64,000 bases of DNA, from contig CAZEXP010000001.1 of assembly GCA_964516845.1 (NCBI GenBank), positions 124,665-188,664 of the forward strand, given 5' to 3'. This document shows, piece after piece, positions 19,217 through 49,652 of this stretch. The notes beneath the pieces were generated by a model, which was not told where the DNA came from, searched no databases, and saw only the letters and a list, made by a program, of their open reading frames with translations. A program made the position numbers and the translations under genes. Position 1 is the first letter of the stretch; each line of letters begins with the position of its first letter. This DNA comes from an uncultured bacterium. GTDB taxonomy: Bacteria > Joyebacterota > Joyebacteria > Joyebacterales > Joyebacteraceae.

Positions 19217-19292
19217 TCAGCGCACGACCAGGCGATTGCTTGGGACGCTGCACCTCGGGTCGCGCCGCGTCCGGCGACCCCACGGAGGTTCG

Positions 19293-21331: not shown

Positions 21332-22467
21332 GGGTCGTGCTCGGCGAGGTCCGCTCGTACGACGTTGCCGCCATCCGGAGTATGGTGGAGCGCGCTCTGG
21401 CCGACCTCGACATGTCCTTCGCGGGGGCGCGGACGGCGATCGTCAAGCCGAACATCGTGACGGGACGCCGTCCGGACTCGGGTGTCGTGACACATCCGGC
21501 CGTCGTCGAGGCGATCGTGCAGATGCTCCGGGACGCCGGGGTGTCGCGTATCACTCTGGCGGACGGCCCCGGCGTCGGGCTCGACAGCGACTGGGTCTTC
21601 GAGAAATCCGGGTACCGGGCGCTGGCCGACAGGCTCGGCGTCGAGCTGGTGACGTTCAACGGGATTGCGCGGCGGAAGCGGGAGTGGAAGTACGGTGAGG
21701 TCGGGATCCCCGAGATACTCGAGGACGCCGATCTCTACATCAACGTGCCGAAGATGAAGACGCACGGCTACACGACCGTGACGCTCTCGATGAAGAATCA
21801 CAAGGGCATGCTCTCGCAGGCCGACAAGAAGCTCGATCATCACCTCGGGCTGCACGAGCCGCTGGCCGAACAGGCCCGTCTGCGTCCGCCCGACCTCATC
21901 GTGCTCGACGGGATCGTCGGGATCGAGGGAGACGGCCCTCTCAACGGCAAGCGCGTTCATGCGAACCTCCTGGCGGTCGGGACCAACATGCTCGCGGTCG
22001 ACGCGACCGTGGCAAGACACATGGGGATCGAACCGACCGAGATCAAGCATCTCGTGTTCGCGGCGGAGAAAGGCCTCGGGACGCTCGACCCGGACGTCAC
22101 AGGGACGGCTCCGACGCGCCGCTTCGCCAGGGCGAACGAGGAGTATGGACGGGTCGGCAACATCTACTCGTGGCGCGACTGCACGGCGTGCTCGATGTGC
22201 ATCGACTCGTTCGGCGGGGCGGTCTCACTGGCCCTCAAGGAGCCGCGGTACTGGTTCACGCTGGTTCCGAAGCTGGCATGGTGGGGGCTTATCGGAGGGC
22301 TGCACATCGTTCAGGGCCGCGAGGGTCGACTGCCGAACCGGCCGGGCAAGGTGATCTGCTTCGGGAAATGCACCGGCGAACTCGCCGCCCGAGAGGGTCT
22401 CACGCACCTGGCGGGATGTCCGCCGACGGCTCGTGAAGTGGCCGAGGCTCTCAGGAAAGGACTCTGA
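21328..22467 (+). CDS. DUF362-family protein with C-terminal Cys-rich (ferredoxin-like) region
   Basis: ATG 21328 in ATGA overlap. DUF362-like core (IVKPNIV...HPAVVEAIV...INVPKMKTH). C-terminal CTACSMC / CFGKC / GC motifs. Confidence 0.7.
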   Translation: MRVVLGEVRSYDVAAIRSMVERALADLDMSFAGARTAIVKPNIVTGRRPDSGVVTHPAVVEAIVQMLRDAGVSRITLADGPGVGLDSDWVFEKSGYRALADRLGVELVTFNGIARRKREWKYGEVGIPEILEDADLYINVPKMKTHGYTTVTLSMKNHKGMLSQADKKLDHHLGLHEPLAEQARLRPPDLIVLDGIVGIEGDGPLNGKRVHANLLAVGTNMLAVDATVARHMGIEPTEIKHLVFAAEKGLGTLDPDVTGTAPTRRFARANEEYGRVGNIYSWRDCTACSMCIDSFGGAVSLALKEPRYWFTLVPKLAWWGLIGGLHIVQGREGRLPNRPGKVICFGKCTGELAAREGLTHLAGCPPTAREVAEALRKGL

Positions 22468-22470: not shown

Positions 22471-23310
22471 ATGGCCGTAGTCGACCGCGACACCGGTCTG
22501 GGGACCACGTACGAGCGCATCGCAGTGGCCTTGATGCTCGAGCGTTTCGCGGCGCGGCACGACGTGTCGCGCGTGCTCGAGGGGCCGGTGGACGGCATCA
22601 CGGGCATCGCCGGACTCAACAGCATTCCGCTCGCGCAGCGGGGAGCGCGGGTCGATCTTCTCCTTGGAGACAGCGGTCAGCGCGAACTCGCAGGGCGGAT
22701 CTGGCACGGTCTGGGGCTCGCGGACCGATCGAGCATCCGGGTGAGCGAGAACGGGATGCTGTCCGTCCCCGAGCGGTCATACGACCTGGTGTGGAACTTC
22801 AATGCGTTGCCGCAGTCGAAGGACCCCGCGCGCCTGGTCGCGGAGATGTGTGACGCCAGCAACCGCTACGTGATGATCTTCGTCTCGAACACGTGGAACT
22901 ACGGATTCCCGGTGCACCGTCTCCATCACCACGCGGCGCATGAGGACTGGACCCACGGCGACATCGCGTCGATGAACGTGCCCAAGATCGAACGGATGCT
23001 CCGGGACCGTGGATTCGCATCGCGAGAGCGCCTGGTCGTCGACACACCGTGGTGGCCCGACATCGACTCGCCGATCGAGGAGGTCATAGCGACCTTCCTT
23101 CCGTTCCTCAGGCGCCGGGTATCGGGTTCTAAGCGGCTCGAGCACTACACATGGACATGGGATGCCCTCCCGTATTTCGACATGGACAAGCGGAAGCGGC
23201 TGATGGACGAGATCGGAAAGCACTTCGTCATCGAACGTTCGGCTCCGGGCGCGCTGAAGATCCTGTTCGCACATCACCGCGGCGTGCTGGCCGAGAGGAC
23301 GAACGAGTGA
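22471..23310 (+). CDS. Putative class I SAM-dependent methyltransferase-like protein
   Basis: Glycine-rich loop VLEGPVDGITGIAG and acidic segment YDLVWNFNAL. Weak family assignment. Confidence 0.5.
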   Translation: MAVVDRDTGLGTTYERIAVALMLERFAARHDVSRVLEGPVDGITGIAGLNSIPLAQRGARVDLLLGDSGQRELAGRIWHGLGLADRSSIRVSENGMLSVPERSYDLVWNFNALPQSKDPARLVAEMCDASNRYVMIFVSNTWNYGFPVHRLHHHAAHEDWTHGDIASMNVPKIERMLRDRGFASRERLVVDTPWWPDIDSPIEEVIATFLPFLRRRVSGSKRLEHYTWTWDALPYFDMDKRKRLMDEIGKHFVIERSAPGALKILFAHHRGVLAERTNE

Positions 23311-24377
23311 GTCGTAGAAACCGCATACTGATCGCCCTCGTGGTCGGCTGCGTCCTGCTGGCCGTCGCCCTGAGGGGGCTTGATCTCAGGAGCATCGGCG
23401 CGCGCATCGGGAGCGCCGACCCGCGGTGGCTTGCGCTCGCAGCGTTGGTCTATCTCTCGGCCTACTTCGTGCGGAGCCTCAGGTGGCGTCTCATCCTGCG
23501 TCCGATCGAACGCGTCACCGTGCGTGAGAGCTTCGCGATGCTCATGGCCGGGTACTTTCTCAACTACCTCATCCCGATCCGTGCCGGCGAGGTTGCGAAG
23601 TCGTTCTTCCTGAAGCGCATGAAGGGCGTGCCGATCGCCACGAGCCTGCCGACCGTCTTCGTCGACAAGCTGCTCGAGCTCTTCTCGATACTGCTCGTCA
23701 TCGTGATGGTGCCGGTCCTGTCGGTTCGGCTCTCAGGATCACTCGCGTCTCTGATCGTTGCAGTCCTCGTTGTCTTCGTCATGGCTGTCGGGCTGCTGCT
23801 TCTCGCGATCCGGAAGCGCGAAGCTACGGTGCGGCTGATCTGCAGGCTCCTCTCGTGGCTTCCCCGCCGGGCGTACGATCGCATCTCTTCATGGCTGGGG
23901 TTGTTCATCAACGGACTGTCGATGTCGGCCTCGACGGTGCGTGGTCTGTGGGGACTGCTGGCGCTCACCGGCTGCGCGGTCCTGCTCGACGCCGTCTACT
24001 TCCGGCTGATGTTCCTGGCTTTCGACATTCCCGTGAGCTACCCGATCGTGCTCTTCGGCTATACACTGATATCCCTGTCGTATATTCTCCCGACACCGCC
24101 CGCGCAGATAGGCTACAACGAGATGATCATGGAGCTGATCTTCGCTGCCGGACTCGGAATGTCCCGTCCCGACGTGATGGTCGTCATGCTCCTCGCGCAC
24201 CCGCTGACGGGCATTCTCATCACATTGGTCGGGCTCTGGTCGTTCTCATCGATGAGCATTCGCCTGACGGAGAGCTTTCGGCAGATCGAGGAAGAAGGAG
24301 CACTCGCGGGAGCGTCCGCGGACGCGTGTCCGTCACCGGGACCACCGCGCATTGACCAGCAGGGGAGGAATCAGTGA
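23307..24377 (+). CDS. UPF0104 / lysylphosphatidylglycerol-synthase-TM-like (flippase-like) membrane protein
   Basis: GTG 23307 in GTGA overlap. N-terminus RILIALVVGCVLLAVALRGLDL...WLALAALVYLSAYFVRSLRW typical of the family. Eight predicted TM segments. Confidence 0.7.
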   Translation: MSRRNRILIALVVGCVLLAVALRGLDLRSIGARIGSADPRWLALAALVYLSAYFVRSLRWRLILRPIERVTVRESFAMLMAGYFLNYLIPIRAGEVAKSFFLKRMKGVPIATSLPTVFVDKLLELFSILLVIVMVPVLSVRLSGSLASLIVAVLVVFVMAVGLLLLAIRKREATVRLICRLLSWLPRRAYDRISSWLGLFINGLSMSASTVRGLWGLLALTGCAVLLDAVYFRLMFLAFDIPVSYPIVLFGYTLISLSYILPTPPAQIGYNEMIMELIFAAGLGMSRPDVMVVMLLAHPLTGILITLVGLWSFSSMSIRLTESFRQIEEEGALAGASADACPSPGPPRIDQQGRNQ

Positions 24378-25330
24378 AGCGCTATCTCGTGACCGGCGCG
24401 GCGGGCTTCATCGGCTCGCACCTGGCGGAACGTCTCATCGGTACCGGGGCCGAGGTCGTCGGGGTCGACTGCTTCACCGACTACTACAGGAGAGAGATCA
24501 AGGAGTCGAATCTCGAGAGTCTTCGGGGATCCGACCGCTTCCAAATCATTGAGGCGGACCTGGCGACCGCGGAACTCGAACCACTCCTCGACGGCGTCGA
24601 CGGGGTGCTTCACATGGCGGCCCAGGCGGGAGTACGCGCGAGCTGGGGCAGCAGCTTCCAGACCTACCTCGACTGCAACGTCCGCTCGACCCAGCGTCTC
24701 CTCGAGGCCGTCAAGGACCGGCCGCTGGACCGCTTCGTCTACGCCTCGTCCTCATCGGTCTACGGCCAGACGGACGATCTCCCCATGCGCGAACGCGGTC
24801 TGACCTGCCCGGTCTCGCCGTACGGGGTGACGAAGCTGGCCGGCGAACACCTGGCGGTTCTCTACCACCGGAACTACGGGGTCCCCACGGTCTCGCTGCG
24901 GTTCTTCACGGTCTACGGACCGCGGCAGCGCCCGGACATGGCGTTCCATCGCTTCCTCAGGGCGGGCATGCTTGGTCAGCCCGTCGAGATATACGGCGAC
25001 GGCCGCCAGACGCGCGATTTCACGTATGTCGATGATACCGTCAGCGGCATCGTGGCCGCTCTGGAGCAGGGGCCGCCCGGAGAGGTCTTCAATCTCGGAG
25101 GCGGGGGAAGCGTCACGCTCAACCATGCCGTCGACCTCATAGAGGGATTGGTCGGTCGAAGCCTCGACAGGAAATACGGCGACCAGCAGATGGGCGACGT
25201 CAGCGACACCCGCGCGGACAACTCGAAGGCGCGCGAGATTCTCGGATTCAAGCCAGCCTCGAGTCTCGAAGCGGGTCTTGCGAGAGAGTTCGAGTGGGTT
25301 GCCGGGCTTTATCGGAACGAATCGGTCTGA
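24374..25330 (+). CDS. NAD-dependent nucleotide-sugar epimerase/dehydratase
   Basis: VTGAAGFIGSHL Rossmann motif and SDR catalytic YxxxK segment (PYGVTK). Confidence 0.85.
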   Translation: MKRYLVTGAAGFIGSHLAERLIGTGAEVVGVDCFTDYYRREIKESNLESLRGSDRFQIIEADLATAELEPLLDGVDGVLHMAAQAGVRASWGSSFQTYLDCNVRSTQRLLEAVKDRPLDRFVYASSSSVYGQTDDLPMRERGLTCPVSPYGVTKLAGEHLAVLYHRNYGVPTVSLRFFTVYGPRQRPDMAFHRFLRAGMLGQPVEIYGDGRQTRDFTYVDDTVSGIVAALEQGPPGEVFNLGGGGSVTLNHAVDLIEGLVGRSLDRKYGDQQMGDVSDTRADNSKAREILGFKPASSLEAGLAREFEWVAGLYRNESV

Positions 25331-25346
25331 CGAAGGAGTGACACAC

Positions 25347-26291
25347 ATGACGGTGACGATACTGATCCCGCTCTACAACGAAGAGGGGAGTCTCCGGGAA
25401 CTCGTGGAGGCCATCTCGGCGGCGATGTCGCCAACGGGCTGGGCCTGGGAGATCCTCTTCATCAATGACGGGAGCACGGACGGGTCCCTCGATATACTTC
25501 GTGAGCTGTACGACTCGCGGGACAACATCGAGGTCATCTCTTTCGGACGGAACAGCGGGAAGGCGGCCGGCCTGGCCGTCGGGTTCGCCGAGGCGCGGGG
25601 CGACGTGGTCATCACGATGGACGCGGACCTTCAGGACGATCCCGCCGAGATCCCCGGAATGATCCGGATGCTCGATGAGGGATACGACCTCGTCTCCGGC
25701 TGGAAGAAGGAGCGGCACGACCCACTGTCGAAGCGCATCCCGTCGAAGCTCTTCAACGGCGTCACACGGATGGTCAGCGGGCTGACGCTTCATGACATGA
25801 ACTGCGGCCTGAAGGCCTACCGGCGAGACGTCGTCAAGACCATCAGGGTCTACGGCGAGCTCCACCGGTACACGCCGGTCCTCGCACACTTTGCGGGTTT
25901 CCGTGTGACCGAGACCGTGGTCCGTCACCACGCAAGGAAGTTCGGTCAGTCGAAGTACGGCATCGAGCGGTTCGCGCGAGGCGGCTTCGATCTTCTCACG
26001 GTGCTCTTCCTGCGGCGCTATCTCACACGACCTCTCCACCTGTTCGGGATGCTCGGTTCCATCCTTTTCGCGGGCGGGTTCGGTATCGGCGTCTATCTCA
26101 CGGTCGTGAAGATCATGGGCGGAGCGATCGGCAGACGCCCGCTCCTGACCCTCGGCATCCTGCTGATGGTCGTCGGTGTCCAGTTCGTGTCGCTCGGGCT
26201 CCTCGGCGAGATGATCGCCAATCTCAGGAGCACCGGGATCACGTATCCTATCCTCGAGCACCTCAAGCCGCGCGGAGGGAGTCGTGGTTGA
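25347..26291 (+). CDS. Polyprenyl-phosphate sugar synthase, GT2 (GtrB/ArnC/DPM1-like) with C-terminal TM helices
   Basis: ILIPLYNEEGSL...INDGSTDGS...DADLQDDP...KYGIERF plus two C-terminal TM segments, the typical GtrB architecture. Confidence 0.8.
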   Translation: MTVTILIPLYNEEGSLRELVEAISAAMSPTGWAWEILFINDGSTDGSLDILRELYDSRDNIEVISFGRNSGKAAGLAVGFAEARGDVVITMDADLQDDPAEIPGMIRMLDEGYDLVSGWKKERHDPLSKRIPSKLFNGVTRMVSGLTLHDMNCGLKAYRRDVVKTIRVYGELHRYTPVLAHFAGFRVTETVVRHHARKFGQSKYGIERFARGGFDLLTVLFLRRYLTRPLHLFGMLGSILFAGGFGIGVYLTVVKIMGGAIGRRPLLTLGILLMVVGVQFVSLGLLGEMIANLRSTGITYPILEHLKPRGGSRG

Positions 26292-27474
26292 TGCGCCGAC
26301 CTCCGAGACCAGGGGTCTGACGGACGAGGCCGCTCGAATCGCGATCGTCGGGCCGGCCTATCCGCTGCGCGGCGGAAACGCGCTCTTCGTGGCGCATCTG
26401 CTCGATGCGCTACGGCAGGACCACGACGTGTACGTCGTCTCCTACAGCCGTCTCTACCCGGGGCTGCTCTTTCCCGGCAAGACGCAGATGAACGTCAGCC
26501 GTGACCCGGTGAAGACGACGCCATCGCGGCAGCTGGTTGACTCGATCAATCCCATCAGCTGGTTTCGGACAGCCCGATGGATCTGCGCGCCGAAACGTCG
26601 TCCCGACCTCGTCGTGTTCACGTGGTGGAACCCGTTCTTCGGACCGGCTCTCGGCGCGATCGCGCGACTTGTGAAGCGTGGATGCGGAGCCGGAGTGGTG
26701 TTCGTCGCTGAGAACGTGGTGTCACACGAGAACCGTTTCGTCGATCGCTTCCTGACTCGGTACGCTCTGGCGTCCGCCGACTACTTCCTCGTTCTCTCCG
26801 GGGTCGTGGCCCGGCGGATTCAGTCGCTCTTTCCGGGCGTCCCGGTGCGGCAGGCAGCGCTTCCCATCTATGACTGCTATCGCGCCGATGAGATCGACCG
26901 TGATGCGGTCCGGTCCAGACTCGGGCTGACGAAACCGACGATCCTCTTCTTCGGATACGTCCGAGCCTACAAGGGGCTTCAGTATCTGCTCGAAGCCATG
27001 CCGGCCGTTCTCGAGAAGCACGATGTCCAGCTTCTGGTCGTCGGCGAGTTCTACGATGAACAGCAGCGCTACGAACGGCTGATCGCCGCGCTTGATATCG
27101 GCGAGGCGGTCACCGTCGTCGCGGAGCACGTTCCCGATGAGGCTGTCGGCGAGTACTTCGTGGCGTCGGACGTCGTGGCACTCCCGTATCTCTCCGCGAC
27201 CCAGAGCGGGATCACCCAGATAGCGTACGCCTTCGGACTTCCCGTCATCAGCACGAACGTCGGCGGTCTTCCCGAGGTAGTCAAGGACGGGAGAACGGGC
27301 TATGTTGTAGAGTCGGGCAGCGCTGCGGCGCTCTCGGCCGCCATCGTCCGCTTCTTCGAGGGCGACGAGCAGGCGAAGCTGACACGCGGCGTCGCCGAAG
27401 AGGCGCGGGCCGACCAGGCGGGGGAACTCATGCGTCGCTCGATCGAGGACTTCCTCGAACTCAACAGGGGGTAG
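26284..27474 (+). CDS. Glycosyltransferase family 4 (GT-B)
   Basis: C-terminal GT4 block (YLSATQSGITQIAYAFGLPVISTNVGGLPEVV). Confidence 0.8.
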   Translation: MVDAPTSETRGLTDEAARIAIVGPAYPLRGGNALFVAHLLDALRQDHDVYVVSYSRLYPGLLFPGKTQMNVSRDPVKTTPSRQLVDSINPISWFRTARWICAPKRRPDLVVFTWWNPFFGPALGAIARLVKRGCGAGVVFVAENVVSHENRFVDRFLTRYALASADYFLVLSGVVARRIQSLFPGVPVRQAALPIYDCYRADEIDRDAVRSRLGLTKPTILFFGYVRAYKGLQYLLEAMPAVLEKHDVQLLVVGEFYDEQQRYERLIAALDIGEAVTVVAEHVPDEAVGEYFVASDVVALPYLSATQSGITQIAYAFGLPVISTNVGGLPEVVKDGRTGYVVESGSAAALSAAIVRFFEGDEQAKLTRGVAEEARADQAGELMRRSIEDFLELNRG

Positions 27475-27475
27475 C

Positions 27476-28384
27476 ATGCCGGACCCGGCGGTCACTGCGG
27501 TTGTGATCAACTGGAACGGGATACCCGTGATCGAGGCATGTCTCGCGTCGCTTCTCGACTCGACGTATGAGCGGCTCTCGGTTCTGGTGGTCGACAACGC
27601 CTCCGAGGACGATTCGGTCTCCGTCATCCGAGAACGCTACCCGGCCGTCCGCATCGAAAGTACAGGGAGGAATCTCGGCTACGCCGGGGGCGCGAATCAC
27701 GGCCTCAGGGCCGCGCGCGCTTCCGGGGCGGCGTATGTTCTCCTGATGAATAACGACGTGGAGATCGCGCCGGATGCCGTTGGGGAGCTGGTTCGGGCCG
27801 CCGAGGAACACCCGGACGCCATGCTGCTCGGTCCGAAGATCTACTACTTCGACCGGCCGGACGTCATCTGGTCCGCCGGTGGGGTCGTGTCGTTCTGGAC
27901 CGGCAACATCCGGCACCTGGGGATCCGGGAGCAGGACCACGGGCAGTTCGACGAACTCCGCGAGGTCGACTATCTGACGGGGTGCGCCGTGCTGCTCCCG
28001 GCGCGGACGCTCGAGACGGTCGGCGAGCTCGATGAGACGTACTACATGTACAACGAGGACACCGACTGGTCGACCCGCGTCATACGGTCGGGCGGAAAGG
28101 TCCTCTACGTGCCGTCGGCCCGGCTCTGGCACAAGGTGTCGTCGAGTTCGGGAGGGGGCCTGACGAGCTACAAGATCTATCACCGGATACGCAGCACGCT
28201 GGCGTATTTCAGACGATATGCGGCGTGGTACCAGTGGTTCGGCATCCTGCCCGCGACAGCGGCGCGGACGATCACGTTCGCCTTTGCGCAGATAGCGCAC
28301 GGCGAGGGGGGGCGCGTCTCAGCGCTCATTCGCGGGATAGCCGACGGCGCCACGGGGAGGCGGAGGGGCTACACGAATGACTAG
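27476..28384 (+). CDS. Glycosyltransferase family 2 (rhamnosyltransferase-like)
   Basis: VVINWNGIPVIEACLASL...VVDNASEDDS...LLMNNDV...TGCAVLL. Confidence 0.8.
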   Translation: MPDPAVTAVVINWNGIPVIEACLASLLDSTYERLSVLVVDNASEDDSVSVIRERYPAVRIESTGRNLGYAGGANHGLRAARASGAAYVLLMNNDVEIAPDAVGELVRAAEEHPDAMLLGPKIYYFDRPDVIWSAGGVVSFWTGNIRHLGIREQDHGQFDELREVDYLTGCAVLLPARTLETVGELDETYYMYNEDTDWSTRVIRSGGKVLYVPSARLWHKVSSSSGGGLTSYKIYHRIRSTLAYFRRYAAWYQWFGILPATAARTITFAFAQIAHGEGGRVSALIRGIADGATGRRRGYTND

Positions 28385-29783
28385 GCAAACGAGGAAACGT
28401 ATCAGATGGGCACGACCGTGGACACGCGTGCTTTCGGCGCTGCTGCTCGTCGTCGCGATCGCGGGACCGGGACTGCTCTCCGGATGCGCGAGCGACGGTG
28501 GAGGAGACGGACGACCACGAGTCATCATCTTCGGGGTCGACTCCGCGAACTGGAACGTGATGACGCCGATGCTCGAGGCGGGAGAGCTCCCGAATATCGC
28601 GCGACTCGTGCGTCGGGGCTCGTACGGCGTGCTCAAGAGCGGAATACCGATCCAGTCACCCCAGATGTGGACCTCGATCGCCACGGGCGTCGTGCCCGAG
28701 CGGCACGGGATCACCGGGTTCACGGCGGAGATACCAGGGACTGACAACGAGCTTCCGGTGACCAACAACATGCGTCGGGTCAAGGCCTTCTGGAACATTC
28801 TCACCGACGAGGATGTCTCGGTGGGCATTGTGGGGTGGTGGCCCAGCTGGCCGGTCGATGAGGTGAACGGCTTCATGATCGCGCAGCGTGCGTGGCCGAT
28901 GAACTGGTCCGTGCACGGCGTGCCCTTCGGCGCGGCGCGGGACCGGGACGGACGGTTGATCGTCCAGGATTTCCCCGGCCGGACGTATCCCGAAGGCCTC
29001 TACAAGGACTTCGAGCAGTTCGTGATGACCGAGGAGGACGTGACCCTCGATGAACTCAACCGCTTCTTCGCCGACTCGCGTTTCACGGATCACAGGAAGC
29101 AGTTCCACGCGCGGTGGGTCTACGCCAAGGACAGGACCTTCGCGGATGCGGGTCTCCACTACTACACACAGGAGAGACCCGAGGTCTTCGCGGTCTATCT
29201 CCAGGGAACCGACGTGGTCTCACACTACTACTGGGGCTACCAGACGGCGGAGGGCTTCACCGTGTCGCCGGAGGACGAGCGCATGTACGGCGCCGTCGTA
29301 CGCAACTACTACGCGTTCATCGACGACGTCATCGGCGCGTTCCTCGACGTGGCGCCGGAAGAGACCGCCGTACTGGTGATCTCGGACCACGGGTTCGAGA
29401 CGAAGCGTGATCTGAAGGTGCTGTGGGAGCGCGGCGAGGCCATCAGGACCCTTGAGGGCAACAAGGATGTTCCGTGGGACCACGCGATCGACGGCGCCAT
29501 CATCTTCGCAGGACCGGGCATCAAGCGCGGCGTGCCGACGCCCGATATGTCGGTCGTCGACGTCATGCCGACGCTGATGGCCTACCTCGGTCTGCCTGTG
29601 GCGGAGGATCTCGACGGCCGTCCCGCTCTTGCGCTCTTCGAGGACGACTATCTCAGCGCTCACCCGATCCAGTGGGTCGCGTCATACGAGACGGGGGAGG
29701 CGCGCGGCGAGGACGGCCCGATAGCCTCGCCGATGGATGAAGGCATCAAGGAGAAGCTGCGGTCGCTGGGCTACATCGAGTGA
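28377..29783 (+). CDS. Alkaline-phosphatase-superfamily / type I phosphodiesterase-nucleotide pyrophosphatase-like lipoprotein
   Basis: Lipobox LLSGC. VIIFGVDSANWNVM...LPNIARL N-terminus and VISDHGFE metal-site motif. Confidence 0.7.
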   Translation: MTRQTRKRIRWARPWTRVLSALLLVVAIAGPGLLSGCASDGGGDGRPRVIIFGVDSANWNVMTPMLEAGELPNIARLVRRGSYGVLKSGIPIQSPQMWTSIATGVVPERHGITGFTAEIPGTDNELPVTNNMRRVKAFWNILTDEDVSVGIVGWWPSWPVDEVNGFMIAQRAWPMNWSVHGVPFGAARDRDGRLIVQDFPGRTYPEGLYKDFEQFVMTEEDVTLDELNRFFADSRFTDHRKQFHARWVYAKDRTFADAGLHYYTQERPEVFAVYLQGTDVVSHYYWGYQTAEGFTVSPEDERMYGAVVRNYYAFIDDVIGAFLDVAPEETAVLVISDHGFETKRDLKVLWERGEAIRTLEGNKDVPWDHAIDGAIIFAGPGIKRGVPTPDMSVVDVMPTLMAYLGLPVAEDLDGRPALALFEDDYLSAHPIQWVASYETGEARGEDGPIASPMDEGIKEKLRSLGYIE

Positions 29784-29806
29784 TCGTGTTCCAACCCGGG
29801 AGAGAC

Positions 29807-30916
29807 ATGGACACGAGCGTACGATTCGATTGCAGGCACTATGTCGGCGACCGCCCCTGCGTGTGGGGCGGACGCTGCGACGGATGCGCGCATTACAGCG
29901 GCATGGGGACACGGATCCTCGTCATCAAGCTCGCCGCGGCCGGTGACGTCCTGCGCGCAACAGCCGTGTTGCCACCGCTGAAGCGCAAGCATCCGGAGTC
30001 TCACATCACGTGGGTGACGGACTCCGTTGCGATGCCGTTCCTCGAGCACAACCCGTACGTGGACCGCGTCATGCCCTTCGGCTTCGCGTCCCACGTGGAA
30101 CTCGCGGCACAACGTTTCGATGAGGTCATTTGTCTCGACAAGGAACCCCGCGCCGCAGCGTTCGCCGGAGATGTCGCCGCCGACCGCCGCCTCGGCTACG
30201 GACTGACGGAGTGCGGTACTGTCACGCCGATAGACGAAGGGGCGCGGTACGACTTCGATCTGGGTCTCTCGAACGAACGCAAGTTCCGGGAGAACACGCG
30301 GAGCGCCCCGGACATCTACTGCGAGGTGGCGGGTGTCGAGTATGAGGGCGAGCCCTACCTGCTCGCGCTTCCGGACGCGTCGCTCTCCCATGCTCGTGAC
30401 TTTCTCGCCGGGCTAGCGGTCGCGGACCCGCTCGTCGGACTCAATGTCGGCGCCGGCGGTGTGTTCGCCAACAAGGCATGGACGGCCGAGGGATACGCCG
30501 AGCTTGCGCAACGAGTCGTCTCCGAACTCGGCGGCGTCTGTGTGGCGCTGGGCGGTCCCGATGATCGCGAGCGGATGACGCGCGTCGTGGAGTTGTCGGA
30601 CGGGGCGGCGCTCGACGGAGGCATCCACTCTCTTCTGGACTTCGCCGCGATCGTGGCGCACCTGGATGCGCTGGTCACGGGAGACACGATGGCCCTCCAC
30701 ATCGCGGTCGCCGTCGGCGTCCCGGTCGTCGCTCTGTTCGGCCCGACGGTCCCCCAGGAGATCGAGGTCTACGGCAGAGGACGCAAGGTGGTCTCGCCGG
30801 CCGATTGCGCGCCCTGCTACCTGCGCAGCTGTGACCGAAGTCCCAGCTGCATGGAACAGCTTCCCACTGACGCCGTAATGGATTCGCTGCGCGAGGTTCT
30901 GGCGGAGGACGTCTAG
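29807..30916 (+). CDS. ADP-heptose:LPS heptosyltransferase-like glycosyltransferase family 9
   Basis: ILVIKLAAAGDVLRATAVLPPLKRKHP...ITWV GT9 N-terminus and C-terminal GxTGDTMALHIAVAVGVP. Confidence 0.8.
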   Translation: MDTSVRFDCRHYVGDRPCVWGGRCDGCAHYSGMGTRILVIKLAAAGDVLRATAVLPPLKRKHPESHITWVTDSVAMPFLEHNPYVDRVMPFGFASHVELAAQRFDEVICLDKEPRAAAFAGDVAADRRLGYGLTECGTVTPIDEGARYDFDLGLSNERKFRENTRSAPDIYCEVAGVEYEGEPYLLALPDASLSHARDFLAGLAVADPLVGLNVGAGGVFANKAWTAEGYAELAQRVVSELGGVCVALGGPDDRERMTRVVELSDGAALDGGIHSLLDFAAIVAHLDALVTGDTMALHIAVAVGVPVVALFGPTVPQEIEVYGRGRKVVSPADCAPCYLRSCDRSPSCMEQLPTDAVMDSLREVLAEDV

Positions 30917-30941
30917 AGCCGCGCTGAGCAGAGAGAGGGCT

Positions 30942-32729
30942 ATGAACCCGACCGCACGATCAACACAGGCTCCCCGGAAGGCCGCCGCACTCGATGTGGC
31001 CGTGTTCGCCGCGGCGTACGCGCTTCTCGTGGCCGCCGTGCTGGGAGCGCTCGGACTCCGCACGAGCGGTTTCGCATTCACGCTCGCGCTTCCTCAACTG
31101 CTGCCTCTCGTGCTCTCGAGCTTCCTGGCATATCTTCTCGTCGGGTTCGTGGTTCTGGCCCCCTCGCTGCTGAGGCGCACCCGTGGGACGAGCAGGCGGA
31201 CCGGGTTCCGCCTCGCGTTCGCCATGACGACGGTGACGGTCTGGGTATCTCTCACCGTGAGCTTCCTTCCCGTGAAGGGGTCGGAGACATTCGTGCGCGC
31301 TGGAACCCTGACGACGTTCCAGCTCAACATGCTGGGGCTCGCCGCCGTGTTCGCCGCCGGACTCCTGGCAGGATGGATCACATCGTTTCTCCTGCTGAGA
31401 CTGCTGCGCGCCCTCAACGCTTCGCTGACGCCGAACGGCACGCGGATGATCGGATTCGGGCTTGCCGGATTGGCCCTGGTCGCGCTGCTGGTCGGCCCCT
31501 CGGTACGGGCCCGGAGCTTCTCGCATCTGGCGCTGCCCGACGGCGGAACATGGAACGAGCGTCCCAGAGTCGCGGTGGTCGGCGTGGACGGGTGTGATTG
31601 GGAGATGCTCGGTCCGCTTGTCGAGGCGGGGGAACTCCCGAACTTCGCGCGTCTGATGGAGCATGGCTCGTACGGCCCGCTGCTCTCGATGGACCCGATG
31701 ATCTCTCCGAGGATATGGACGACCATTGCGACCGGCGAGACGCCGGAGGAGCACGGCATCATCGGTTTCACCAACGCCGCGGGTGTCCCGGTCAACGCGC
31801 GGATGCGACGCTCCCCGGCGGTATGGGAGATCGTCTCTGCATACGGCGGTGTGTCCGCTGTGAACGGCTGGTACGTGACCTGGCCGACCGACGACGTGCG
31901 CGGCTACATGGTCTCGGACCGCGTTCACAGCCTTCTGCGAGGCGCCACACAGATCTGGCACTCCATCGAGGGCGAACCGACGAACGAACGTCTCGCCCGG
32001 TTCGGGCAATTCACATTCGACAGCGGGTACAAGCGGTTTCAGAGAACGGAGACCGCCTATCAGCAGAACCGCATCGTCGACGAACCGCTCCGCTGGGGAT
32101 ATCTCAGGGATACGATCTACGGTCGCCTTTCCCACGAGCTCCTGCCGCGCTACGAGCCGGATCTCTCGATGGTCTACTTCCGCGGCATCGATTTCGTCCA
32201 GCACTTCTTCTGGCAGTACACGGATCGGGCTGATTTTCCCGGGGTCACGGATGCTGAGGCGCGTGAGTACGGGGAGGTCATCGCGAACTACTACCGGTAT
32301 CAGGACGGGCTTCTCGGGCGTCTGTTGGACGATCTCGGGGATGACGTGAGCGTTCTCCTCGTATCGGACCACGGCTTCACCGCGCGCGTTCTCCTCGACC
32401 CGAACATGCCGGAGCTGACGGGCATGCACGATCGCCGCGGAGTCATCATCGCATCGGGTCCGGCCTTCGCCGACGCGGGCTACGTGGAGGGAGCGACGAT
32501 TCTCGATGTGGCTCCGACGACGCTGGCCGTGCTCGGCCTTCCGATAACCCGGACGATGGATGGTCGGGTCCTGACGGAGCTCCTCGCTCCGGAAGATCTT
32601 GAACGCTACCCCGTGCAGCTTGTCGAGAGCTACGGCACGGCTCTGGGCCGCTCGGTCGAGACCGGGACGGGTTCCAGCATGGATGAGTCCATCAAGGAAC
32701 AGCTCAGGTCGCTCGGCTACATCCAGTGA
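30942..32729 (+). CDS. Alkaline-phosphatase-superfamily / phosphodiesterase-like protein with N-terminal ~5-TM domain (paralog of 28377..29783)
   Basis: Hydrophobic N-terminal ~200 aa. Then VAVVGVDGCDWEML...LPNFARL, VSDHGF, and the same C-terminal tail (IKEQLRSLGYIQ vs IKEKLRSLGYIE). Confidence 0.7.
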   Translation: MNPTARSTQAPRKAAALDVAVFAAAYALLVAAVLGALGLRTSGFAFTLALPQLLPLVLSSFLAYLLVGFVVLAPSLLRRTRGTSRRTGFRLAFAMTTVTVWVSLTVSFLPVKGSETFVRAGTLTTFQLNMLGLAAVFAAGLLAGWITSFLLLRLLRALNASLTPNGTRMIGFGLAGLALVALLVGPSVRARSFSHLALPDGGTWNERPRVAVVGVDGCDWEMLGPLVEAGELPNFARLMEHGSYGPLLSMDPMISPRIWTTIATGETPEEHGIIGFTNAAGVPVNARMRRSPAVWEIVSAYGGVSAVNGWYVTWPTDDVRGYMVSDRVHSLLRGATQIWHSIEGEPTNERLARFGQFTFDSGYKRFQRTETAYQQNRIVDEPLRWGYLRDTIYGRLSHELLPRYEPDLSMVYFRGIDFVQHFFWQYTDRADFPGVTDAEAREYGEVIANYYRYQDGLLGRLLDDLGDDVSVLLVSDHGFTARVLLDPNMPELTGMHDRRGVIIASGPAFADAGYVEGATILDVAPTTLAVLGLPITRTMDGRVLTELLAPEDLERYPVQLVESYGTALGRSVETGTGSSMDESIKEQLRSLGYIQ

Positions 32730-32799
32730 CCGGCCTGATCGGAACCGTGATCCCCCTGGAGGGAAATTGACCTCACGCGTCGCACTGCATCGCGCCGGA

Positions 32800-34047
32800 A
32801 TGCATGTCCGGGTCGGCAACGTCTTTGCGGTCATCGTTGTCGGCGCGCTCCTCCAGGTGCTCACGCAAACGGTCCTCGCTCGCGGACTCACGAAAGAGGA
32901 TGTGGGTCTCATCTCCCTGATTCTGGGAGCCCTGCCGCTCTTCTCCACGCTGACGCTTCTTGGGCAGGACACGTCCATCGTGAGATACCTCTCTCGAGAT
33001 GGTCGAGCGGAGTACGATCTGACGGGGCACGCGAGGCGTGTTCTGATGATCGTCGTTCCGCTTGGGGCAGCGCTGGGACTGGTCGGCGGCCTCTTCTATG
33101 CTCTCCCACGGCTTCCCCTCGCCACCATCATCACCCTCGTCGCGACGCAGAACGTGGTGCTGGTGCTGACCGCATTTCTGCGAGCCAGACACCGCTATGA
33201 AGCTGCCATCATGCTGCGGCATCTTCCGGTCATCGGAAGCGCCGCTGCTCTCGCGGTGCTCTTCGCCACCGGAACCCTCAGCCTGACCACCGCGCTCGTG
33301 GCGCTTCTCGCCGCGTACGCAGTTTCGGCCGTCGTGACGGTCGCACTCCCGTGGAACCGCTCGCCGGAGAGCGCGCTGTCCACTCCCGCGGCCCGCGTTC
33401 CCACGCGGGTGATCAGAGAAGGCCTGCTGTTTCTGGGATTGGGCGTCTCGCTGTCCGTAATGGTGAGCATCGACAGACTCGTCATCAGCCGACTGATGAC
33501 CCTCTCAGACCTTGCGGTCTACTCAACGATCTTCGCGACCACGAAGGGATTCGACTTCCTGTTCTACGCTGTCGGCTATGTGCTCATGCCCGCGATCGGT
33601 CGCGGCGGCAACATGAGCCTGCGGAAACCCGCGCTGGTGGTCGGGGGAGTCACGGCGCTTGCGGTCGTCGGATACCTCCTGCTGGGCGACGAACTCGTGC
33701 ATCTGCTCTTCTCAGGGCGCTACGACGAGGGCACGTACCTGATCCCCGCTTTCGTGTTGTCCGGCGCGTTGAAGCTGTTCTACTCTATCCCGTCAAGCTA
33801 TATCAGCGGGGGCGCCCCGACACGGGCCGTCCGCCAGTTCATGGTGACCAATCTCCTGACCATGGCACTGAACGTCGTACTCGACATCGTGTTCGTGCTC
33901 AGGATGGGACTCATCGGGGCGGCTCTGGCGACTGCGATCGCCTGGGCGCTGCGCCTGATCGCGGGCCTGATCATCATGCAAATGCACAAGGGACGGGCAC
34001 GGCCCCGGCACGTGACGCCTATGCCCGACGAACTGACCGAGCCCTGA
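32800..34047 (+). CDS. Wzx/MOP-superfamily polysaccharide flippase-like membrane protein
   Basis: About 12 predicted TM helices with polysaccharide-biosynthesis-protein architecture. ATG 32800. Confidence 0.7.
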   Translation: MHVRVGNVFAVIVVGALLQVLTQTVLARGLTKEDVGLISLILGALPLFSTLTLLGQDTSIVRYLSRDGRAEYDLTGHARRVLMIVVPLGAALGLVGGLFYALPRLPLATIITLVATQNVVLVLTAFLRARHRYEAAIMLRHLPVIGSAAALAVLFATGTLSLTTALVALLAAYAVSAVVTVALPWNRSPESALSTPAARVPTRVIREGLLFLGLGVSLSVMVSIDRLVISRLMTLSDLAVYSTIFATTKGFDFLFYAVGYVLMPAIGRGGNMSLRKPALVVGGVTALAVVGYLLLGDELVHLLFSGRYDEGTYLIPAFVLSGALKLFYSIPSSYISGGAPTRAVRQFMVTNLLTMALNVVLDIVFVLRMGLIGAALATAIAWALRLIAGLIIMQMHKGRARPRHVTPMPDELTEP

Positions 34048-34084
34048 CGGGGCTCGCGCAAACCCAACGACGAGAGAGGAACCC

Positions 34085-36499
34085 ATGGTGACGCCCCGAG
34101 TCCGCGCGTCGAAGAGGTCCGCGACCGGACCGCGAACAAACGAGTCCCAGCGCCTTGAGCAGGAGCCGATCCTGGGACGTCATGGAACGGCTTTCTGCGT
34201 GACCGTGATCGTTGTTGTGGCGCTCATCTTCTTCTACCGGGTTCTCTTTCTCGGCGAGATCCTGGCCGGGGGAGACGTTCTCGCCGCCGCGGCGATCTTC
34301 GATGACTACGCCCGGGAACGGATCGCTGGTGGATCGCTCCCCTTGTGGAACCCGTACATCTTCTCGGGAATGCCGTTCTTCGAGAGCATGACGTGGAACG
34401 GCGTGGTCTACCCGAGCTACTGGATCAGACACTTCATCGAGGCCATCCCCGGAGTCGAGCTTCCGCGCCTCACGTTCATCGTCCTGCACTACATGCTCGC
34501 CGGGATCGGCACGTTCGCCTATCTCAGGTCGAGGCGTGTGGGACACATCGGCGCGCTCGCGGGGGGACTGGCGTTCATGCTGTCGCCGCACCTCATCGGA
34601 CTGGCGGGCATCGGTCACGGCGGGAAGGTGCTCACCGGCGCCTACATCCCGCTGGTCCTCATGGCGGCCCATCGGGTCCTGGACACGGGGCAGCGACGCT
34701 GGCTGGGCCTGCTCGGACTCTTCGGAGGGCTGCAGTTCCTGGCGCGCCACGTTCAGGTGAGCTACTACACCTGGCTCGCTGTGGGCATCCTCATCGTCTG
34801 CTTCGCGGTGTCGGCGGCGAGAGAGAAGCGCGGCTGGGGCTTCATCGGAGGCAGAGCCGCCATGGTCATCGGCGGCGGCGTCCTCGCGGCCGCGGTCGCC
34901 GGGATCCTGCTCATTCCGCTCCAGAGCTACTCGCTGCTCTCGACGAGAGTCGCTGAATCGGGTGGCATGGGCTTCGAACAGGCCACGATGTGGTCGTTCC
35001 ATCCGAAGGAGCTTCTGACGTTCCTCGTCCCGTCGGCGTTCGGGATGGCCAACGAGACATACTGGGGACCGATGCCCTTCAACCAGGTCTCGCACTACGC
35101 GGGGTTCGTGGCTCTCGCTCTGGCGGTGGTCGCTCTCGGGACCAGACGGACGCGAACCGTTCGCTATCTCGGGATTCTCGCCGCGGTCTGTCTGGTGCTG
35201 AGCTTCGGGAAGTACGTCACGCCGCTCTACCGCGTCCTCTACACGGTGCTCCCCGGATTCAGTCGCTTCCGCGTGCCGGCGCTGTTCCTCCTGTTCGCCC
35301 AGTTCGCCATCGCCGCGCTTGCCGGACACGGCGTCTCCGCCATTCTTGGCGAGACCCGCGCGAGGATCGGGAACTGGAAGATATGGGCGGCGGCGGTGGC
35401 GGGCGTCGGGATACTGGTCGGCATCATCGTTGCAGCTTCCCGGGCCGGCGTCGAACAGAGCGCGACCGCGGCTCTGCTGTCGAAGCACGCGGGCGTGGCC
35501 CCCTCGGTGCTGAGACCGATCGCCGCGCAGGCCGCCCGCATCGCCGTCCGTGACACGGGGATCCTCATTACCTTCGCCGCAGCCACGGGGGTGGCGATCT
35601 TCGTGGCGTCGACAAGAAGGCTCGCCGGCTGGATCGGAGCACTGCTCCTCGTCGGTGTTCTCGTCTGGGACATCTGGCTCGTGGACGCGCGCTTCATGAA
35701 TCCGGAGCGAATGAGGCCGCTCGACAGCTACTACCCGCAGACGACGGCGGTACGATACCTCAAGCAGCAGGAGGGGTACTTCCGCATCGCGCCCCTGGGA
35801 GCCGATTTCGGCTCGAATGCGTGGATGTACCACCGGATCCAATCGATGGGCGGATACCATCCCGCGAAGCTCGGCTCGTACAACATGCTTCTCGACATCA
35901 TCGGCATCGCCGATCTGCGCTTGCTGGCAATCGCGAACGTCCGGTACGTTGTAGGACCCGAGCAGGAGCTCGGCCACCCCGCGTTCCGTATGGTCGCGCC
36001 CGGTGTCCACGAGTTCCTCGGGGTTCTCCCGCGGACGTTCCTGATCGGTGAGGCCCGGGAGGTCATGCCCGACGGCCGCGTGCTCGGGGAGATGCGAACG
36101 GACGGGTTCAATCCGGGCGCATACGCCATTGTCCAGGGCGAACTCCCGGGGCCGGTCCAATCGGCCGAGGGAGGAACGGCGGAGATCGTCTCCTACGAAG
36201 CCGAGAGGATCGTGATCGAGGCGAACGCCCCGCGACCTTGTCTTCTCTATCTCTCGGAGGTATACTATCCGAACGGCTGGAAGGCCTACGTAGATGGTGA
36301 GGAGACCGCCATTTACCGCACCAACTTCGCGTTCCGGTCAGTCTATCTCGCGTCCGGCGAGCATACGGTGGAGTTCGTCTATGAGCCGCCCTCGGTACGC
36401 GCCGGGCTCATCGTCACGCTGATGGGTCTCGCCGCCGTCACTCTGTTGATCATCCTCCCGAGGCGCAAGGGGAGAGAGCCGCAAGGAGCCGCTGCATGA
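34085..36499 (+). CDS. YfhO-family membrane glycosyltransferase (GT-C like)
   Basis: PLWNPYIFSGMPFF and LHYMLAGIGTFAYL are hallmark YfhO motifs. Large polytopic protein with a C-terminal periplasmic domain. Confidence 0.8.
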   Translation: MVTPRVRASKRSATGPRTNESQRLEQEPILGRHGTAFCVTVIVVVALIFFYRVLFLGEILAGGDVLAAAAIFDDYARERIAGGSLPLWNPYIFSGMPFFESMTWNGVVYPSYWIRHFIEAIPGVELPRLTFIVLHYMLAGIGTFAYLRSRRVGHIGALAGGLAFMLSPHLIGLAGIGHGGKVLTGAYIPLVLMAAHRVLDTGQRRWLGLLGLFGGLQFLARHVQVSYYTWLAVGILIVCFAVSAAREKRGWGFIGGRAAMVIGGGVLAAAVAGILLIPLQSYSLLSTRVAESGGMGFEQATMWSFHPKELLTFLVPSAFGMANETYWGPMPFNQVSHYAGFVALALAVVALGTRRTRTVRYLGILAAVCLVLSFGKYVTPLYRVLYTVLPGFSRFRVPALFLLFAQFAIAALAGHGVSAILGETRARIGNWKIWAAAVAGVGILVGIIVAASRAGVEQSATAALLSKHAGVAPSVLRPIAAQAARIAVRDTGILITFAAATGVAIFVASTRRLAGWIGALLLVGVLVWDIWLVDARFMNPERMRPLDSYYPQTTAVRYLKQQEGYFRIAPLGADFGSNAWMYHRIQSMGGYHPAKLGSYNMLLDIIGIADLRLLAIANVRYVVGPEQELGHPAFRMVAPGVHEFLGVLPRTFLIGEAREVMPDGRVLGEMRTDGFNPGAYAIVQGELPGPVQSAEGGTAEIVSYEAERIVIEANAPRPCLLYLSEVYYPNGWKAYVDGEETAIYRTNFAFRSVYLASGEHTVEFVYEPPSVRAGLIVTLMGLAAVTLLIILPRRKGREPQGAAA

Positions 36500-37209
36500 A
36501 GGTGATGGTCGTCGTCCCGACCTACAACGAGCGTGAGAACATCTCGAATCTGGTTCCCAGACTCCTTGGTCACGGTGAGCACATCAACCTGCTCGTCGTC
36601 GACGACGGATCGCCCGATGGCACCGGCCGGTATGCCGACGAGCTCGCGGCCGCGAATCCGCGCGTCCGGGTTCTTCACAGGCCGTCGAAGATGGGGCTTG
36701 GGTCCGCCTACGTCGCGGGCTTCAAGCTCGCGCTGACCACGGACGTGGACCGCATCGTCCAGATGGACGCCGATTTCTCGCATGACCCCGAGGTCATCCC
36801 GGACCTGCTCCACGAATCGGAGAGATACGATGTCGTTCTCGGGTCCCGCTACATCACCGGCGCGAACGTCGTCAACTGGCCGCTGCAGCGACTCTTCCTG
36901 AGCTATTTCGCCAACGTATACACACATCTGATCACGGGCCTGCCGCTCAGGGACTCCACGGGCGGGTTCAAATGCTTCCGGCGCGAGGTGCTCGAGGCGA
37001 TCGACCTCGATACGATCCGCTCCGACGGCTACTCGTTCCAGATCGAGGTCAACTTCAGGTGCTGGAGGCGAGGCTTCTCGATCCACGAGATCCCGATCGT
37101 GTTCGTCGACCGCCACTCCGGCACATCCAAGATGTCCCGCCGAATCGTCTGGGAGGCGACGTGGCTGGTGTGGCGACTGAGGCTCGAGCGCATCCTGCGA
37201 AGAAGATAG
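36496..37209 (+). CDS. Polyprenol/dolichol-phosphate mannosyltransferase-like GT2 (DPM1/Ppm1-like, soluble type)
   Basis: VVVPTYNERENI...VVDDGSPDGT...DADFSHDP...GFKCFRREVL. ATGA overlap with yfhO. Confidence 0.85.
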   Translation: MKVMVVVPTYNERENISNLVPRLLGHGEHINLLVVDDGSPDGTGRYADELAAANPRVRVLHRPSKMGLGSAYVAGFKLALTTDVDRIVQMDADFSHDPEVIPDLLHESERYDVVLGSRYITGANVVNWPLQRLFLSYFANVYTHLITGLPLRDSTGGFKCFRREVLEAIDLDTIRSDGYSFQIEVNFRCWRRGFSIHEIPIVFVDRHSGTSKMSRRIVWEATWLVWRLRLERILRRR

Positions 37210-47818: not shown

Positions 47819-48055
47819 AAGCGGCCCCTTCGCGGCGTTTCAACACGTGCGCGACGGTTGGGGCGCGCGATCGACGATTGTAACAACCCCGGTGGCACAC
47901 TTCCTGCTTCCTACAGGGAACTGCACAGCAGATGACACGCATACGTTCCCTGCAGTGCGCGTGAGCAGTCACCAGGTCGTGGGCTGATCCCCAATACCCA
48001 GGTCATGAGTCGTACGCCACCTGTTGCACGCCTCAGCGGGGAACGCTTTTTCTCA

Positions 48056-48091
48056 GCCGCCCCCGGCTCTCTACGAGAGCCGGGGGCGGCC
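48056..48091 (+). terminator. 16-bp perfect GC hairpin (GCCGCCCCCGGCTCTC-tacg-GAGAGCCGGGGGCGGC), putative terminator of the glycan operon
   Basis: Read in sequence. Followed by cTTTCC and then directly by the BMC promoter. Confidence 0.45.
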
Positions 48092-48098
48092 CTTTCCA

Positions 48099-48128
48099 TT
48101 GACAGTCGTCACAAGCCTCTGATAGACT
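48099..48128 (+). promoter_or_regulatory. Sigma70-type promoter TTGACA-N18-(TGa)TAGACT upstream of the BMC operon
   Basis: Consensus -35, extended -10 TG and a TAGACT -10. The same cTGATAGACTGC motif recurs at 59317. Confidence 0.45.
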
Positions 48129-48205
48129 GCCCGGGTTCGCGGCAGGTGCCCATGCCGGTGGTGTTTACGCATACCCCGGGGGGGCGATTCCGGCGCTGTG
48201 GAGGC

Positions 48206-48880: not shown

Positions 48881-48995
48881 CGAAAGGCGTCACCACCCGC
48901 GCGGGTGGAGCGTCCCAGAGACGAGTGGGTCAGGGACGCCGGCAGCGAGACGCAAACGAGAGGCCCGCAACCGGGCCGGACGAGGGGGTGCGCAA

Positions 48996-49651: not shown

Positions 49652-49652
49652 C

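Follow-up and report, generated by a model that had tools for sequence, protein, structure and literature searches.

In a 64,000-nucleotide stretch of DNA from an uncultured bacterium (contig CAZEXP010000001.1, positions 124,665 to 188,664; below, "the window" means this whole stretch), two paralogous genes of the alkaline phosphatase (AlkP) superfamily flank a gene for a family 9 glycosyltransferase, and the two AlkP proteins end in nearly the same residues. This arrangement raises the question of what such a pair does among glycan genes, and whether the shared tail is a signal peculiar to the two proteins. A prediction made earlier from the sequence alone (the original prediction) had proposed that the pair might add or remove phospho-substituents, phosphoethanolamine for example, on a heptose-containing glycan, and that the tail could serve as a sorting or interaction tag. 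The reading favoured here, which we hold to be evenly balanced between right and wrong, is that both proteins are extracytoplasmic, membrane-tethered enzymes resembling nucleotide pyrophosphatases/phosphodiesterases (NPPs), that they make or cut a phosphodiester on the glycan of the surrounding locus, and that the tail is the normal end of their catalytic domain. The three genes were found exactly where the original prediction had placed them:

28377..29783, + strand: AlkP_lipo, a lipoprotein of 468 residues; phosphodiesterase-like domain of the NPP type (PF01663) with a two-metal site
29780..30916, + strand: glycosyltransferase of family GT9, 378 residues (PF01075, E=1.8e-20)
30942..32729, + strand: AlkP_TM, a 595-residue paralog with a five-helix N-terminal membrane domain and an outward-facing NPP-type domain

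The AlkP_lipo and GT9 genes overlap by 4 nucleotides (29780-29783), and an overlap of 8 nucleotides (28377-28384) connects AlkP_lipo to the neighbouring gene.

The paralogous pair and its catalytic domain

AlkP_lipo and AlkP_TM were 36% identical across 432 residues (BLASTP, E=5e-71). Both scored far above the Pfam gathering threshold of PF01663 (108.5 bits, E=7e-31, for AlkP_lipo and 101.4 bits for AlkP_TM; cutoff 23), and the family assignment thus passed the hidden Markov model (HMM) check that had been proposed for it. All motifs quoted in the original prediction were located: FGVDSANWNVM...LPNIARL, VGVDGCDWEML...LPNFARL, SDHGF in both proteins, and the two tails described below. The predicted active site of AlkP_lipo consists of D55, S94 (the nucleophile), D279, H283, D337, H338 and H369, all invariant in an alignment of 73 sequences. 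The corresponding residues of AlkP_TM (D216, S255, D417, H421, D476, H477 and H496) were invariant or nearly so, and the pattern DSDHDHH was present in 308 tail-bearing family members. In a profile search of Protein Data Bank (PDB) sequences, S94 aligned to the nucleophile position of Xanthomonas NPP and of the phosphonoacetate hydrolase PhnA.

The AlphaFold models of the two proteins had mean confidence values (pLDDT) of 91.7 (AlkP_lipo) and 89.3 (AlkP_TM). The AlkP alpha/beta fold of the catalytic domain was nearest to that of solved NPPs: with the AlkP_lipo model ENPP1/3 and Xac NPP ranked at the top (Foldseek, E ~1e-14), and ENPP6, ENPP7 and the phosphatase PafA were also among the best structural matches. 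Membrane-bound phospho-group transferases ranked far lower (PbgA 17.6, EptA 17.1, MCR-1 17.0, LtaS 17.0). Neither LtaS nor EptA nor MCR-1 was therefore the closest structural relative, and the catalytic domains resemble those of NPPs rather than that of EptA. On the sulfatase-like profile PF00884, AlkP_lipo reached 36.4 bits (cutoff 25), secondary to PF01663, and AlkP_TM stayed under the cutoff with 20 bits.

The two proteins differ from the NPP/ENPP phosphodiesterases (Xanthomonas NPP, ENPP4/6/7) in several respects. The nucleophile is Ser here and Thr there; an invariant Phe takes the place of the Asn that, in the HGIxxN motif, helps to bind the phosphoryl group; an extra insertion of ~100 residues (~160-265) is present; the proteins are anchored by a lipid or by transmembrane (TM) helices and carry a C-terminal L-x-x-L-G-Y tail of their own; and the match to PF01663 is limited to profile positions 1-245 of 342. 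Judged by sequence and fold, both are members of the known AlkP superfamily and belong to a very large, uncharacterised NPP-like branch of it. Many of the homologs carry the Joint Genome Institute name of COG3379, "predicted AlkP-superfamily phosphohydrolase/phosphomutase", an uncharacterised group to which both window proteins belong. Full-text literature searches with COG3379 and with PF01663 plus polysaccharide returned nothing on this enzyme family; the one paper retrieved with COG3379 deals, to judge by its title, with DNA primases of mobile elements.

The anchors bore out the architecture described in the original prediction, one partner being a lipoprotein and the other a fusion to five N-terminal TM helices:

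28377..28487, + strand: signal peptide of AlkP_lipo with the lipobox L-S-G-C (Cys37), sequence MTRQTRKRIRWARPWTRVLSALLLVVAIAGPGLLSGC
30969..31520, + strand: five transmembrane helices, AlkP_TM residues 10-193 (AlphaFold model; no Pfam match)

The N-terminus of AlkP_lipo comprises a basic n-region and a hydrophobic core followed by the lipobox LLSGC. Cys37 was kept in at least 90% of the homologs in the 73-sequence alignment, and 89 of 120 homologs had a lipobox ahead of their catalytic domain. The helices of AlkP_TM (residues 10-37, 50-77, 84-111, 125-161 and 164-193) were modelled at pLDDT 83-97. The most basic loop of this domain is RRTRGT (residues 78-83), which by the positive-inside rule places the N-terminus of AlkP_TM inside and its catalytic domain outside the cell. 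An N-terminal multi-pass membrane domain followed by an external catalytic domain was thus found in AlkP_TM only, AlkP_lipo being lipid-anchored instead. No Pfam family matched the membrane domain, and an HMM built from it detected its own orthologs only, with no hit among 149 representatives of the family; the positive control gave 105 hits among the collected homologs. The module is therefore either lineage-specific or too diverged to be detected. The outward loop between the third and fourth helices (residues ~107-127, window 31260-31320) is strongly conserved as FLPLKGSExFVRAGxLTTxQLN and was modelled with low confidence (pLDDT ~45); it is a candidate substrate-contact loop. An identical copy of AlkP_TM was present on three short metagenome contigs.

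Distribution and nature of the C-terminal tail

The two tails, which the original prediction had called near-identical, indeed agreed in 12 of 15 residues:

29736..29780, + strand: tail of AlkP_lipo, residues 454-468, DEGIKEKLRSLGYIE; helix 454-463, then Gly-Tyr-Ile (DSSP on the model)
32682..32726, + strand: tail of AlkP_TM, residues 581-595, DESIKEQLRSLGYIQ; helix 580-590 in the model

In the six-frame translation of the window the motif occurred only twice, each time one residue before the stop of an AlkP gene, where 0.09 occurrences of the relaxed motif and 2e-4 of exact LRSLGYI were expected by chance. The tail-coding stretches differ at synonymous sites, which indicates that the similarity is kept at the protein level and rules out recent gene conversion between them. 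L461, L464, G465 and Y466 of AlkP_lipo were invariant in the 73-sequence alignment, as were L588, L591, G592 and Y593 of AlkP_TM in 52 sequences. In the non-redundant set the four AlkP_lipo positions were 97-100% conserved wherever the tail was present, on a par with the metal ligands.

Conservation of the tail, for which the original prediction had recommended an alignment of the family, turned out to reach far beyond the two paralogs. The motif [LIVM]-[RKQE]-[SAGT]-[LIM]-G-Y-[ILVM] was found no more than five residues from the C-terminus in 213 of the 224 homologs collected in two word-index searches. Since these searches and the genome scan could have been biased towards tail-bearing proteins, an exhaustive search was performed with a tail-less query (AlkP_lipo residues 45-437) against 1.84 billion cluster representatives. 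It returned 14,199 representatives at E<=1e-3, of which 1,984 were at E<=1e-30. The tail was counted in the best 149 of the 14,199 (clusters at 50% identity), 147 of which had a complete core. The catalytic domain was closed by the motif in ~140 of the 147 (131 by regular expression plus 9 with the variant L-[VLK]-[ASL]-[IAL]-G-Y), and 7 did not have it. Among the 131 the motif was terminal in 76, and in 53 more than 50 residues came after it; overall, ~78 of the ~140 tails were C-terminal, and ~62 were internal and continued into a long C-terminal extension. Nine of the extensions were scanned, and each consisted of a tetratricopeptide repeat (TPR) array starting 10-20 residues past the motif. 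In ~45% of the family the tail would thus double as the junction to a C-terminal extension.

The tail was also encountered outside this setting. It is present on two 560-residue homologs (at locus L025, MSRRVLVIALDG..., and at L079) whose open reading frame begins at the first catalytic strand, so that a signal peptide would not fit. Another family, made up of sulfatase-like PF00884 proteins with a TM anchor from Thermoanaerobaculia and others (locus L073, ~2900-4760; proteins P0225-P0344), carries it as ...IRELKALGY[ILV][DE] in 118 of 120 homologs, although this family is related to the window protein by only 25% identity over 209 residues. Finally, one adenosine 5'-phosphosulfate (APS) kinase, encoded between AlkP paralogs in a metagenome-assembled genome (MAG) of Ignavibacterium album (locus L036), ends in the same way (...RRRLEDLGYL).

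The occurrence of the tail inside proteins, on signal-less homologs, on the PF00884 family and on an APS kinase argues for a domain-boundary element and against a sorting signal. By its distribution, the LRSLGYI tail is a family-wide element of this kind, the standard C-terminal end of the catalytic domain, and is not specific to the pair. As ~62 of ~140 tails are internal, mechanisms that need a free C-terminus are ruled out. The tail is a 15-residue segment of net negative charge without a TM segment; it has neither the hydrophobic anchor nor the basic cluster of a sorting tag, and it is confined neither to secreted proteins nor to the extreme C-terminus, as would apply to sorting signals such as PEP-CTERM, LPXTG or the C-terminal domain of type IX secretion (T9SS CTD). 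The idea of a sorting tag was accordingly abandoned. Two other candidates were discarded. The known membrane-targeting helices are basic, and a membrane-binding amphipathic helix was dismissed because the tail is net negative; a microcompartment encapsulation peptide, considered because a bacterial microcompartment (BMC) locus lies downstream, was dismissed because both proteins are exported. A profile of the tail alone found nothing significant among all PDB sequences; the best matches, TamA POTRA1 ('VDDAIREGLKALGY', E 0.04) and ribosomal eS19, indicate no more than that helices are often capped by Gly-Tyr.

Read as a self-contained helix, the tail starts with S-P-x-D, presents a hydrophobic i/i+4/i+7 face (I457, L461, L464), stops at the Gly and ends in Tyr-Ile. 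This helix most likely packs back onto its own domain as a structural end-cap, at a putative docking site. Paralogs that lack the tail and keep the active site differ at only four otherwise conserved core columns (G84C, G150T, A272I/V/F and P127I/L), and the first three are changes from small to large residues in predicted beta-strands. Such changes could fill the surface on which the tail docks in its bearers, but this is a weak hint. An attempt to locate the site from mutual information between tail and core columns, with average product correction, was given up: subfamily structure dominated the signal, and one tail column paired with many scattered positions.

The same data were also weighed for a tail that works between proteins, as a portable docking peptide that would bring PF01663-type enzymes, PF00884-type enzymes and the APS kinase to one another or onto a shared scaffold, for example the TPR arrays fused to many family members. 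The motif is conserved as strictly as the catalytic residues, it is shared by two Pfam families whose similarity is at superfamily level only, it stands on an APS kinase placed between AlkP paralogs, certain tandem-array paralogs lack it with the active site kept, and its placement in the AlkP_TM model is of low confidence. However, the internal position in ~62 of ~140 representatives means that a free C-terminus is not required, and where extensions were scanned the TPR array follows directly in nine of nine. In addition, the window holds no co-occurring partner gene, the lone APS kinase could be a chance hit (by our rough estimate ~0.3 such hits were expected among the scanned reading frames), and in AlkP_lipo the tail helix is placed at pLDDT 84-89 without any partner. 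A docking peptide, the chief competitor of the end-cap, is considered unlikely. With the tail read as a domain end, the practical value of L-x-x-L-G-Y-[ILV] is for annotation: it marks the true C-terminal boundary of a catalytic domain that PF01663 covers in part, and also the junction to C-terminal extensions, which were TPR arrays wherever scanned.

The glycan locus and the proposed role of the pair

The three genes lie within a larger set, delimited by Pfam and NCBIfam assignments and by synteny:

23151..39365, + strand: 12-gene glycan locus holding the AlkP_lipo, GT9 and AlkP_TM genes

Genes 1-5 encode an LPG_synthase_TM-like membrane protein, an NAD-dependent epimerase/dehydratase, a membrane GT2 of the polyprenyl-phosphate sugar synthase type, a GT4 and a GT2. 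They are followed by AlkP_lipo, the GT9 protein, AlkP_TM and a Wzx-like flippase (genes 6-9), and by a YfhO-type membrane glycosyltransferase, a PgfS/AglJ-like GT2 and a GT2 fused to a polyprenyl glycosylphosphotransferase (genes 10-12). The arrangement is operon-like: all genes are on the same strand, and many overlap or abut. A synteny scan with one genome per species recovered the identical order of the 12 genes, at 52-83% identity and as far as the contigs reach, in 18 species-level assemblies (loci L004-L021) labelled Eisenbacteria, Effluviviaceae or unclassified. This identifies it as a conserved surface-glycan locus of the Eisenbacteria/Effluviviaceae lineage, in which both AlkP paralog lineages are kept side by side. 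From its gene content, the locus builds a glycan on a polyprenyl-phosphate carrier, and polyprenyl-phosphate-sugar and polyprenyl-diphosphate-glycan routes are both predicted to be used.

The flanked gene had been called a heptosyltransferase. Its assignment to GT9 held (73.8 bits on PF01075; cutoff 22), but the protein fell below the cutoffs of all the NCBIfam heptosyltransferase equivalogs (TIGR02193, 78.5 of 185.3 bits; TIGR02195, 74 of 134.6; TIGR02201, 62.1 of 170.2), that is, those for WaaC, WaaF and WaaQ. Nor was a heptose-synthesis domain detected among the ~40 larger window reading frames scanned against Pfam; other parts of the genome could encode these functions. The "heptose" part of the original prediction is thus not supported. 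The phosphoethanolamine that it gave as an example of a substituent gains no support either, the catalytic domains being closer to NPPs than to EptA. Eight Cys residues of the GT9 protein form two clusters, C18/C27/C33/C36 and C343/C346/C351/C357, and all eight are conserved in each of 16 orthologs, which suggests one or two metal-binding sites; we know of no such sites in characterised lipopolysaccharide heptosyltransferases.

The more general part of that prediction, that the pair adds or removes a phospho-substituent on the glycan of the locus, is a plausible inference from the context. The glycan would be assembled by the initiating phosphotransferase, the cytoplasmic GT2, GT4 and GT9 enzymes, the Wzx flippase and the YfhO-type transferase, the last acting outside and fed by the polyprenyl-phosphate-sugar synthase. 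AlkP_lipo, held by its lipid, and AlkP_TM, held by its own five-helix domain, would both face outside and act at the outer face of the cytoplasmic membrane, using two metal ions and a serine that forms a covalent phospho-enzyme intermediate. The reaction may run in either of two directions: a phospho-head-group could be transferred from a membrane lipid onto the glycan, as by GacH, LtaS, EptA and PIG-N, or a phosphodiester-linked group could be trimmed or released by hydrolysis.

The design of AlkP_TM parallels that of GacH, LtaS and the EptA-type phosphoethanolamine transferases, and the content of the locus parallels that of the GacH locus, which favours the formation or cleavage of a phosphodiester on the glycan. 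GacH, a membrane enzyme of the AlkP superfamily, has its gene in a polysaccharide cluster, and there is structural and genetic evidence that it adds glycerol-phosphate to a streptococcal rhamnose polysaccharide; the proposed donor is phosphatidylglycerol (10.1101/337519). Its locus includes a polyprenyl-phosphate-sugar GT2, a flippase and a membrane transferase of the GT-C type (10.1101/337519), a set comparable to that found here. Enzymes of the GacH, LtaS, EptA and OpgB type (PF00884) share with AlkP_TM the superfamily and the layout, an N-terminal multi-helix membrane domain followed by a catalytic domain outside. They differ in that AlkP_TM does not reach the PF00884 cutoff and its TM domain has no detectable homology to other TM modules; moreover, two metals and a Ser are predicted here, whereas LtaS and GacH use one Mn and a Thr.

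That an NPP-type domain can serve as a glycan phosphotransferase is indicated by the eukaryotic ethanolamine-phosphate transferases of glycosylphosphatidylinositol synthesis (PIG-N/Mcd4, GPI7 and PIG-O), whose PF01663-type lumenal domain moves phosphoethanolamine from a lipid to a glycan. These enzymes serve as no more than an analogy, and their membrane domains are C-terminal and much larger than that of AlkP_TM. A bolder combination, in which L-x-x-L-G-Y is a portable docking module of the AlkP clan, engaged in hetero-oligomers or on TPR scaffolds, and the window pair is a tail-linked glycan phosphotransferase system with PIG-N-like chemistry, appears highly doubtful to us.

The conservation of the locus also bears on the possibility that the two proteins are envelope phosphodiesterases or phosphatases that scavenge organophosphates in general and have no connection with the glycan genes. 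Such a role would fit the presence of Xac NPP and the phosphatase PafA among the best structural matches, the huge size of the family (14,199 representatives), the lipoprotein paralogs that form tandem arrays within this phylum and the distant homologs in unrelated gene contexts. It would not account for the strictly conserved place of the pair between GT2 and Wzx, flanking GT9, with overlapping frames at 52-83% identity in 18 assemblies, nor for the retention of both paralog lineages side by side in those species. We consider scavenging rather improbable.

The predicted use of two lipid-linked routes raises another possibility, namely that the pair recycles the lipid carrier by hydrolysing polyprenyl-phosphate- or polyprenyl-diphosphate-linked intermediates outside, thereby freeing the carrier or releasing the glycan. 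NPP-type enzymes cut phosphodiester and pyrophosphate bonds, those of lipid head-groups among them, and the top matches include ENPP7 and ENPP6. Carrier-liberating hydrolases of other folds, UshA and UpsH, exist in B. subtilis (PMC11898649). On the other hand, no AlkP-superfamily enzyme is known for such a role, and no sequence feature separates it from the transfer of a phospho-group. Carrier recycling, too, seems to us to have little probability.

Several observations weigh against the proposal that the pair works on the glycan with the tail as its normal domain end. No substrate is known for any member of this AlkP branch, and all solved structures are distant in sequence (at most 23% identity; best phmmer E 3.6e-6). 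At position F115 of AlkP_lipo, and at the equivalent position of AlkP_TM, the invariant Phe (HGItgF) stands where NPP (HGIVH(N)) and PhnA (HGICGN) have the phosphoryl-binding Asn, a call that relies on our reading one residue beyond the profile alignment; the chemistry may therefore differ from that of NPP, and the substitution may reflect another substrate or another geometry of the transition state. Three distant homologs with TM fusions (P0222, P0088 and P0218) have no glycan genes in their contexts, and tandem arrays of 5-6 paralogs in Eisenbacteria imply that the family as a whole is not glycan-specific. As to the tail, it was weakly placed in the AlkP_TM model (pLDDT 55-70), and the existence of paralogs with an intact active site and no tail means that it is not needed for the fold. 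Should the proposal be right, bacterial NPP-type enzymes would decorate or process a surface glycan built on polyprenyl-phosphate, a job so far documented for enzymes of the LtaS/EptA/GacH type, and a family of over 14,000 cluster representatives and no characterised member would gain its first functional handle. None of this would surprise a specialist.

Neighbouring genes and relatives in other genomes

Downstream of the 12-gene locus there are genes for a PglF-like dehydratase, a DegT aminotransferase, a FemAB-like protein, a GT87-like protein and further glycosyltransferases. Directly upstream are genes for a radical SAM/SPASM protein and a DUF362 protein (window 20057-22467), preceded by a GT2 gene (19236-20225). 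The BMC locus extends over window positions 48005-54828. It encodes a PduL-type phosphotransacylase (48005-48880), BMC-H shell proteins (48996-49265 and 49298-49651), EutN/CcmL pentamer proteins (49503-49943, 53456-53749 and 53703-54023) and a shell protein with tandem BMC domains (52833-53423), together with an aldehyde dehydrogenase, an RnfC/Nuo51-like protein and a class II aldolase.

The tandem array of 5-6 AlkP paralogs is conserved among Eisenbacteria (loci L028, L029, L032, L034, L042, L053, L071, L076 and L078). At one position of the array the paralog is tail-less with the active site kept. At another it is tail-less, and the nucleophile is gone together with several of the metal ligands (D55 to Q/E, S94 to A/D, H283 to Q); by these substitutions it looks like a conserved pseudoenzyme. 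In the Ignavibacterium album MAG (locus L036, 5578-14269) the gene order is AlkP, AlkP plus TPR, ATP sulfurylase, AlkP, APS kinase and AlkP, so that sulfate-activation genes are interspersed among four PF01663 paralogs. The arrangement hints that some family members may act on sulfated substrates or on substrates related to 3'-phosphoadenosine 5'-phosphosulfate.

The closest representatives (50%-identity clusters, P0345-P0493) were diverse at their N-termini. In ~40% of them more than 150 residues precede the catalytic core. By hydropathy these N-terminal modules contain 0, 1, 4-5 or up to 10 TM segments, and they have no detectable homology to the five-helix domain of the window protein. Many of the representatives with a long N-terminus also possess a long C-terminal extension, which was a TPR array in each of the nine scanned, and such proteins measure ~1000 residues.

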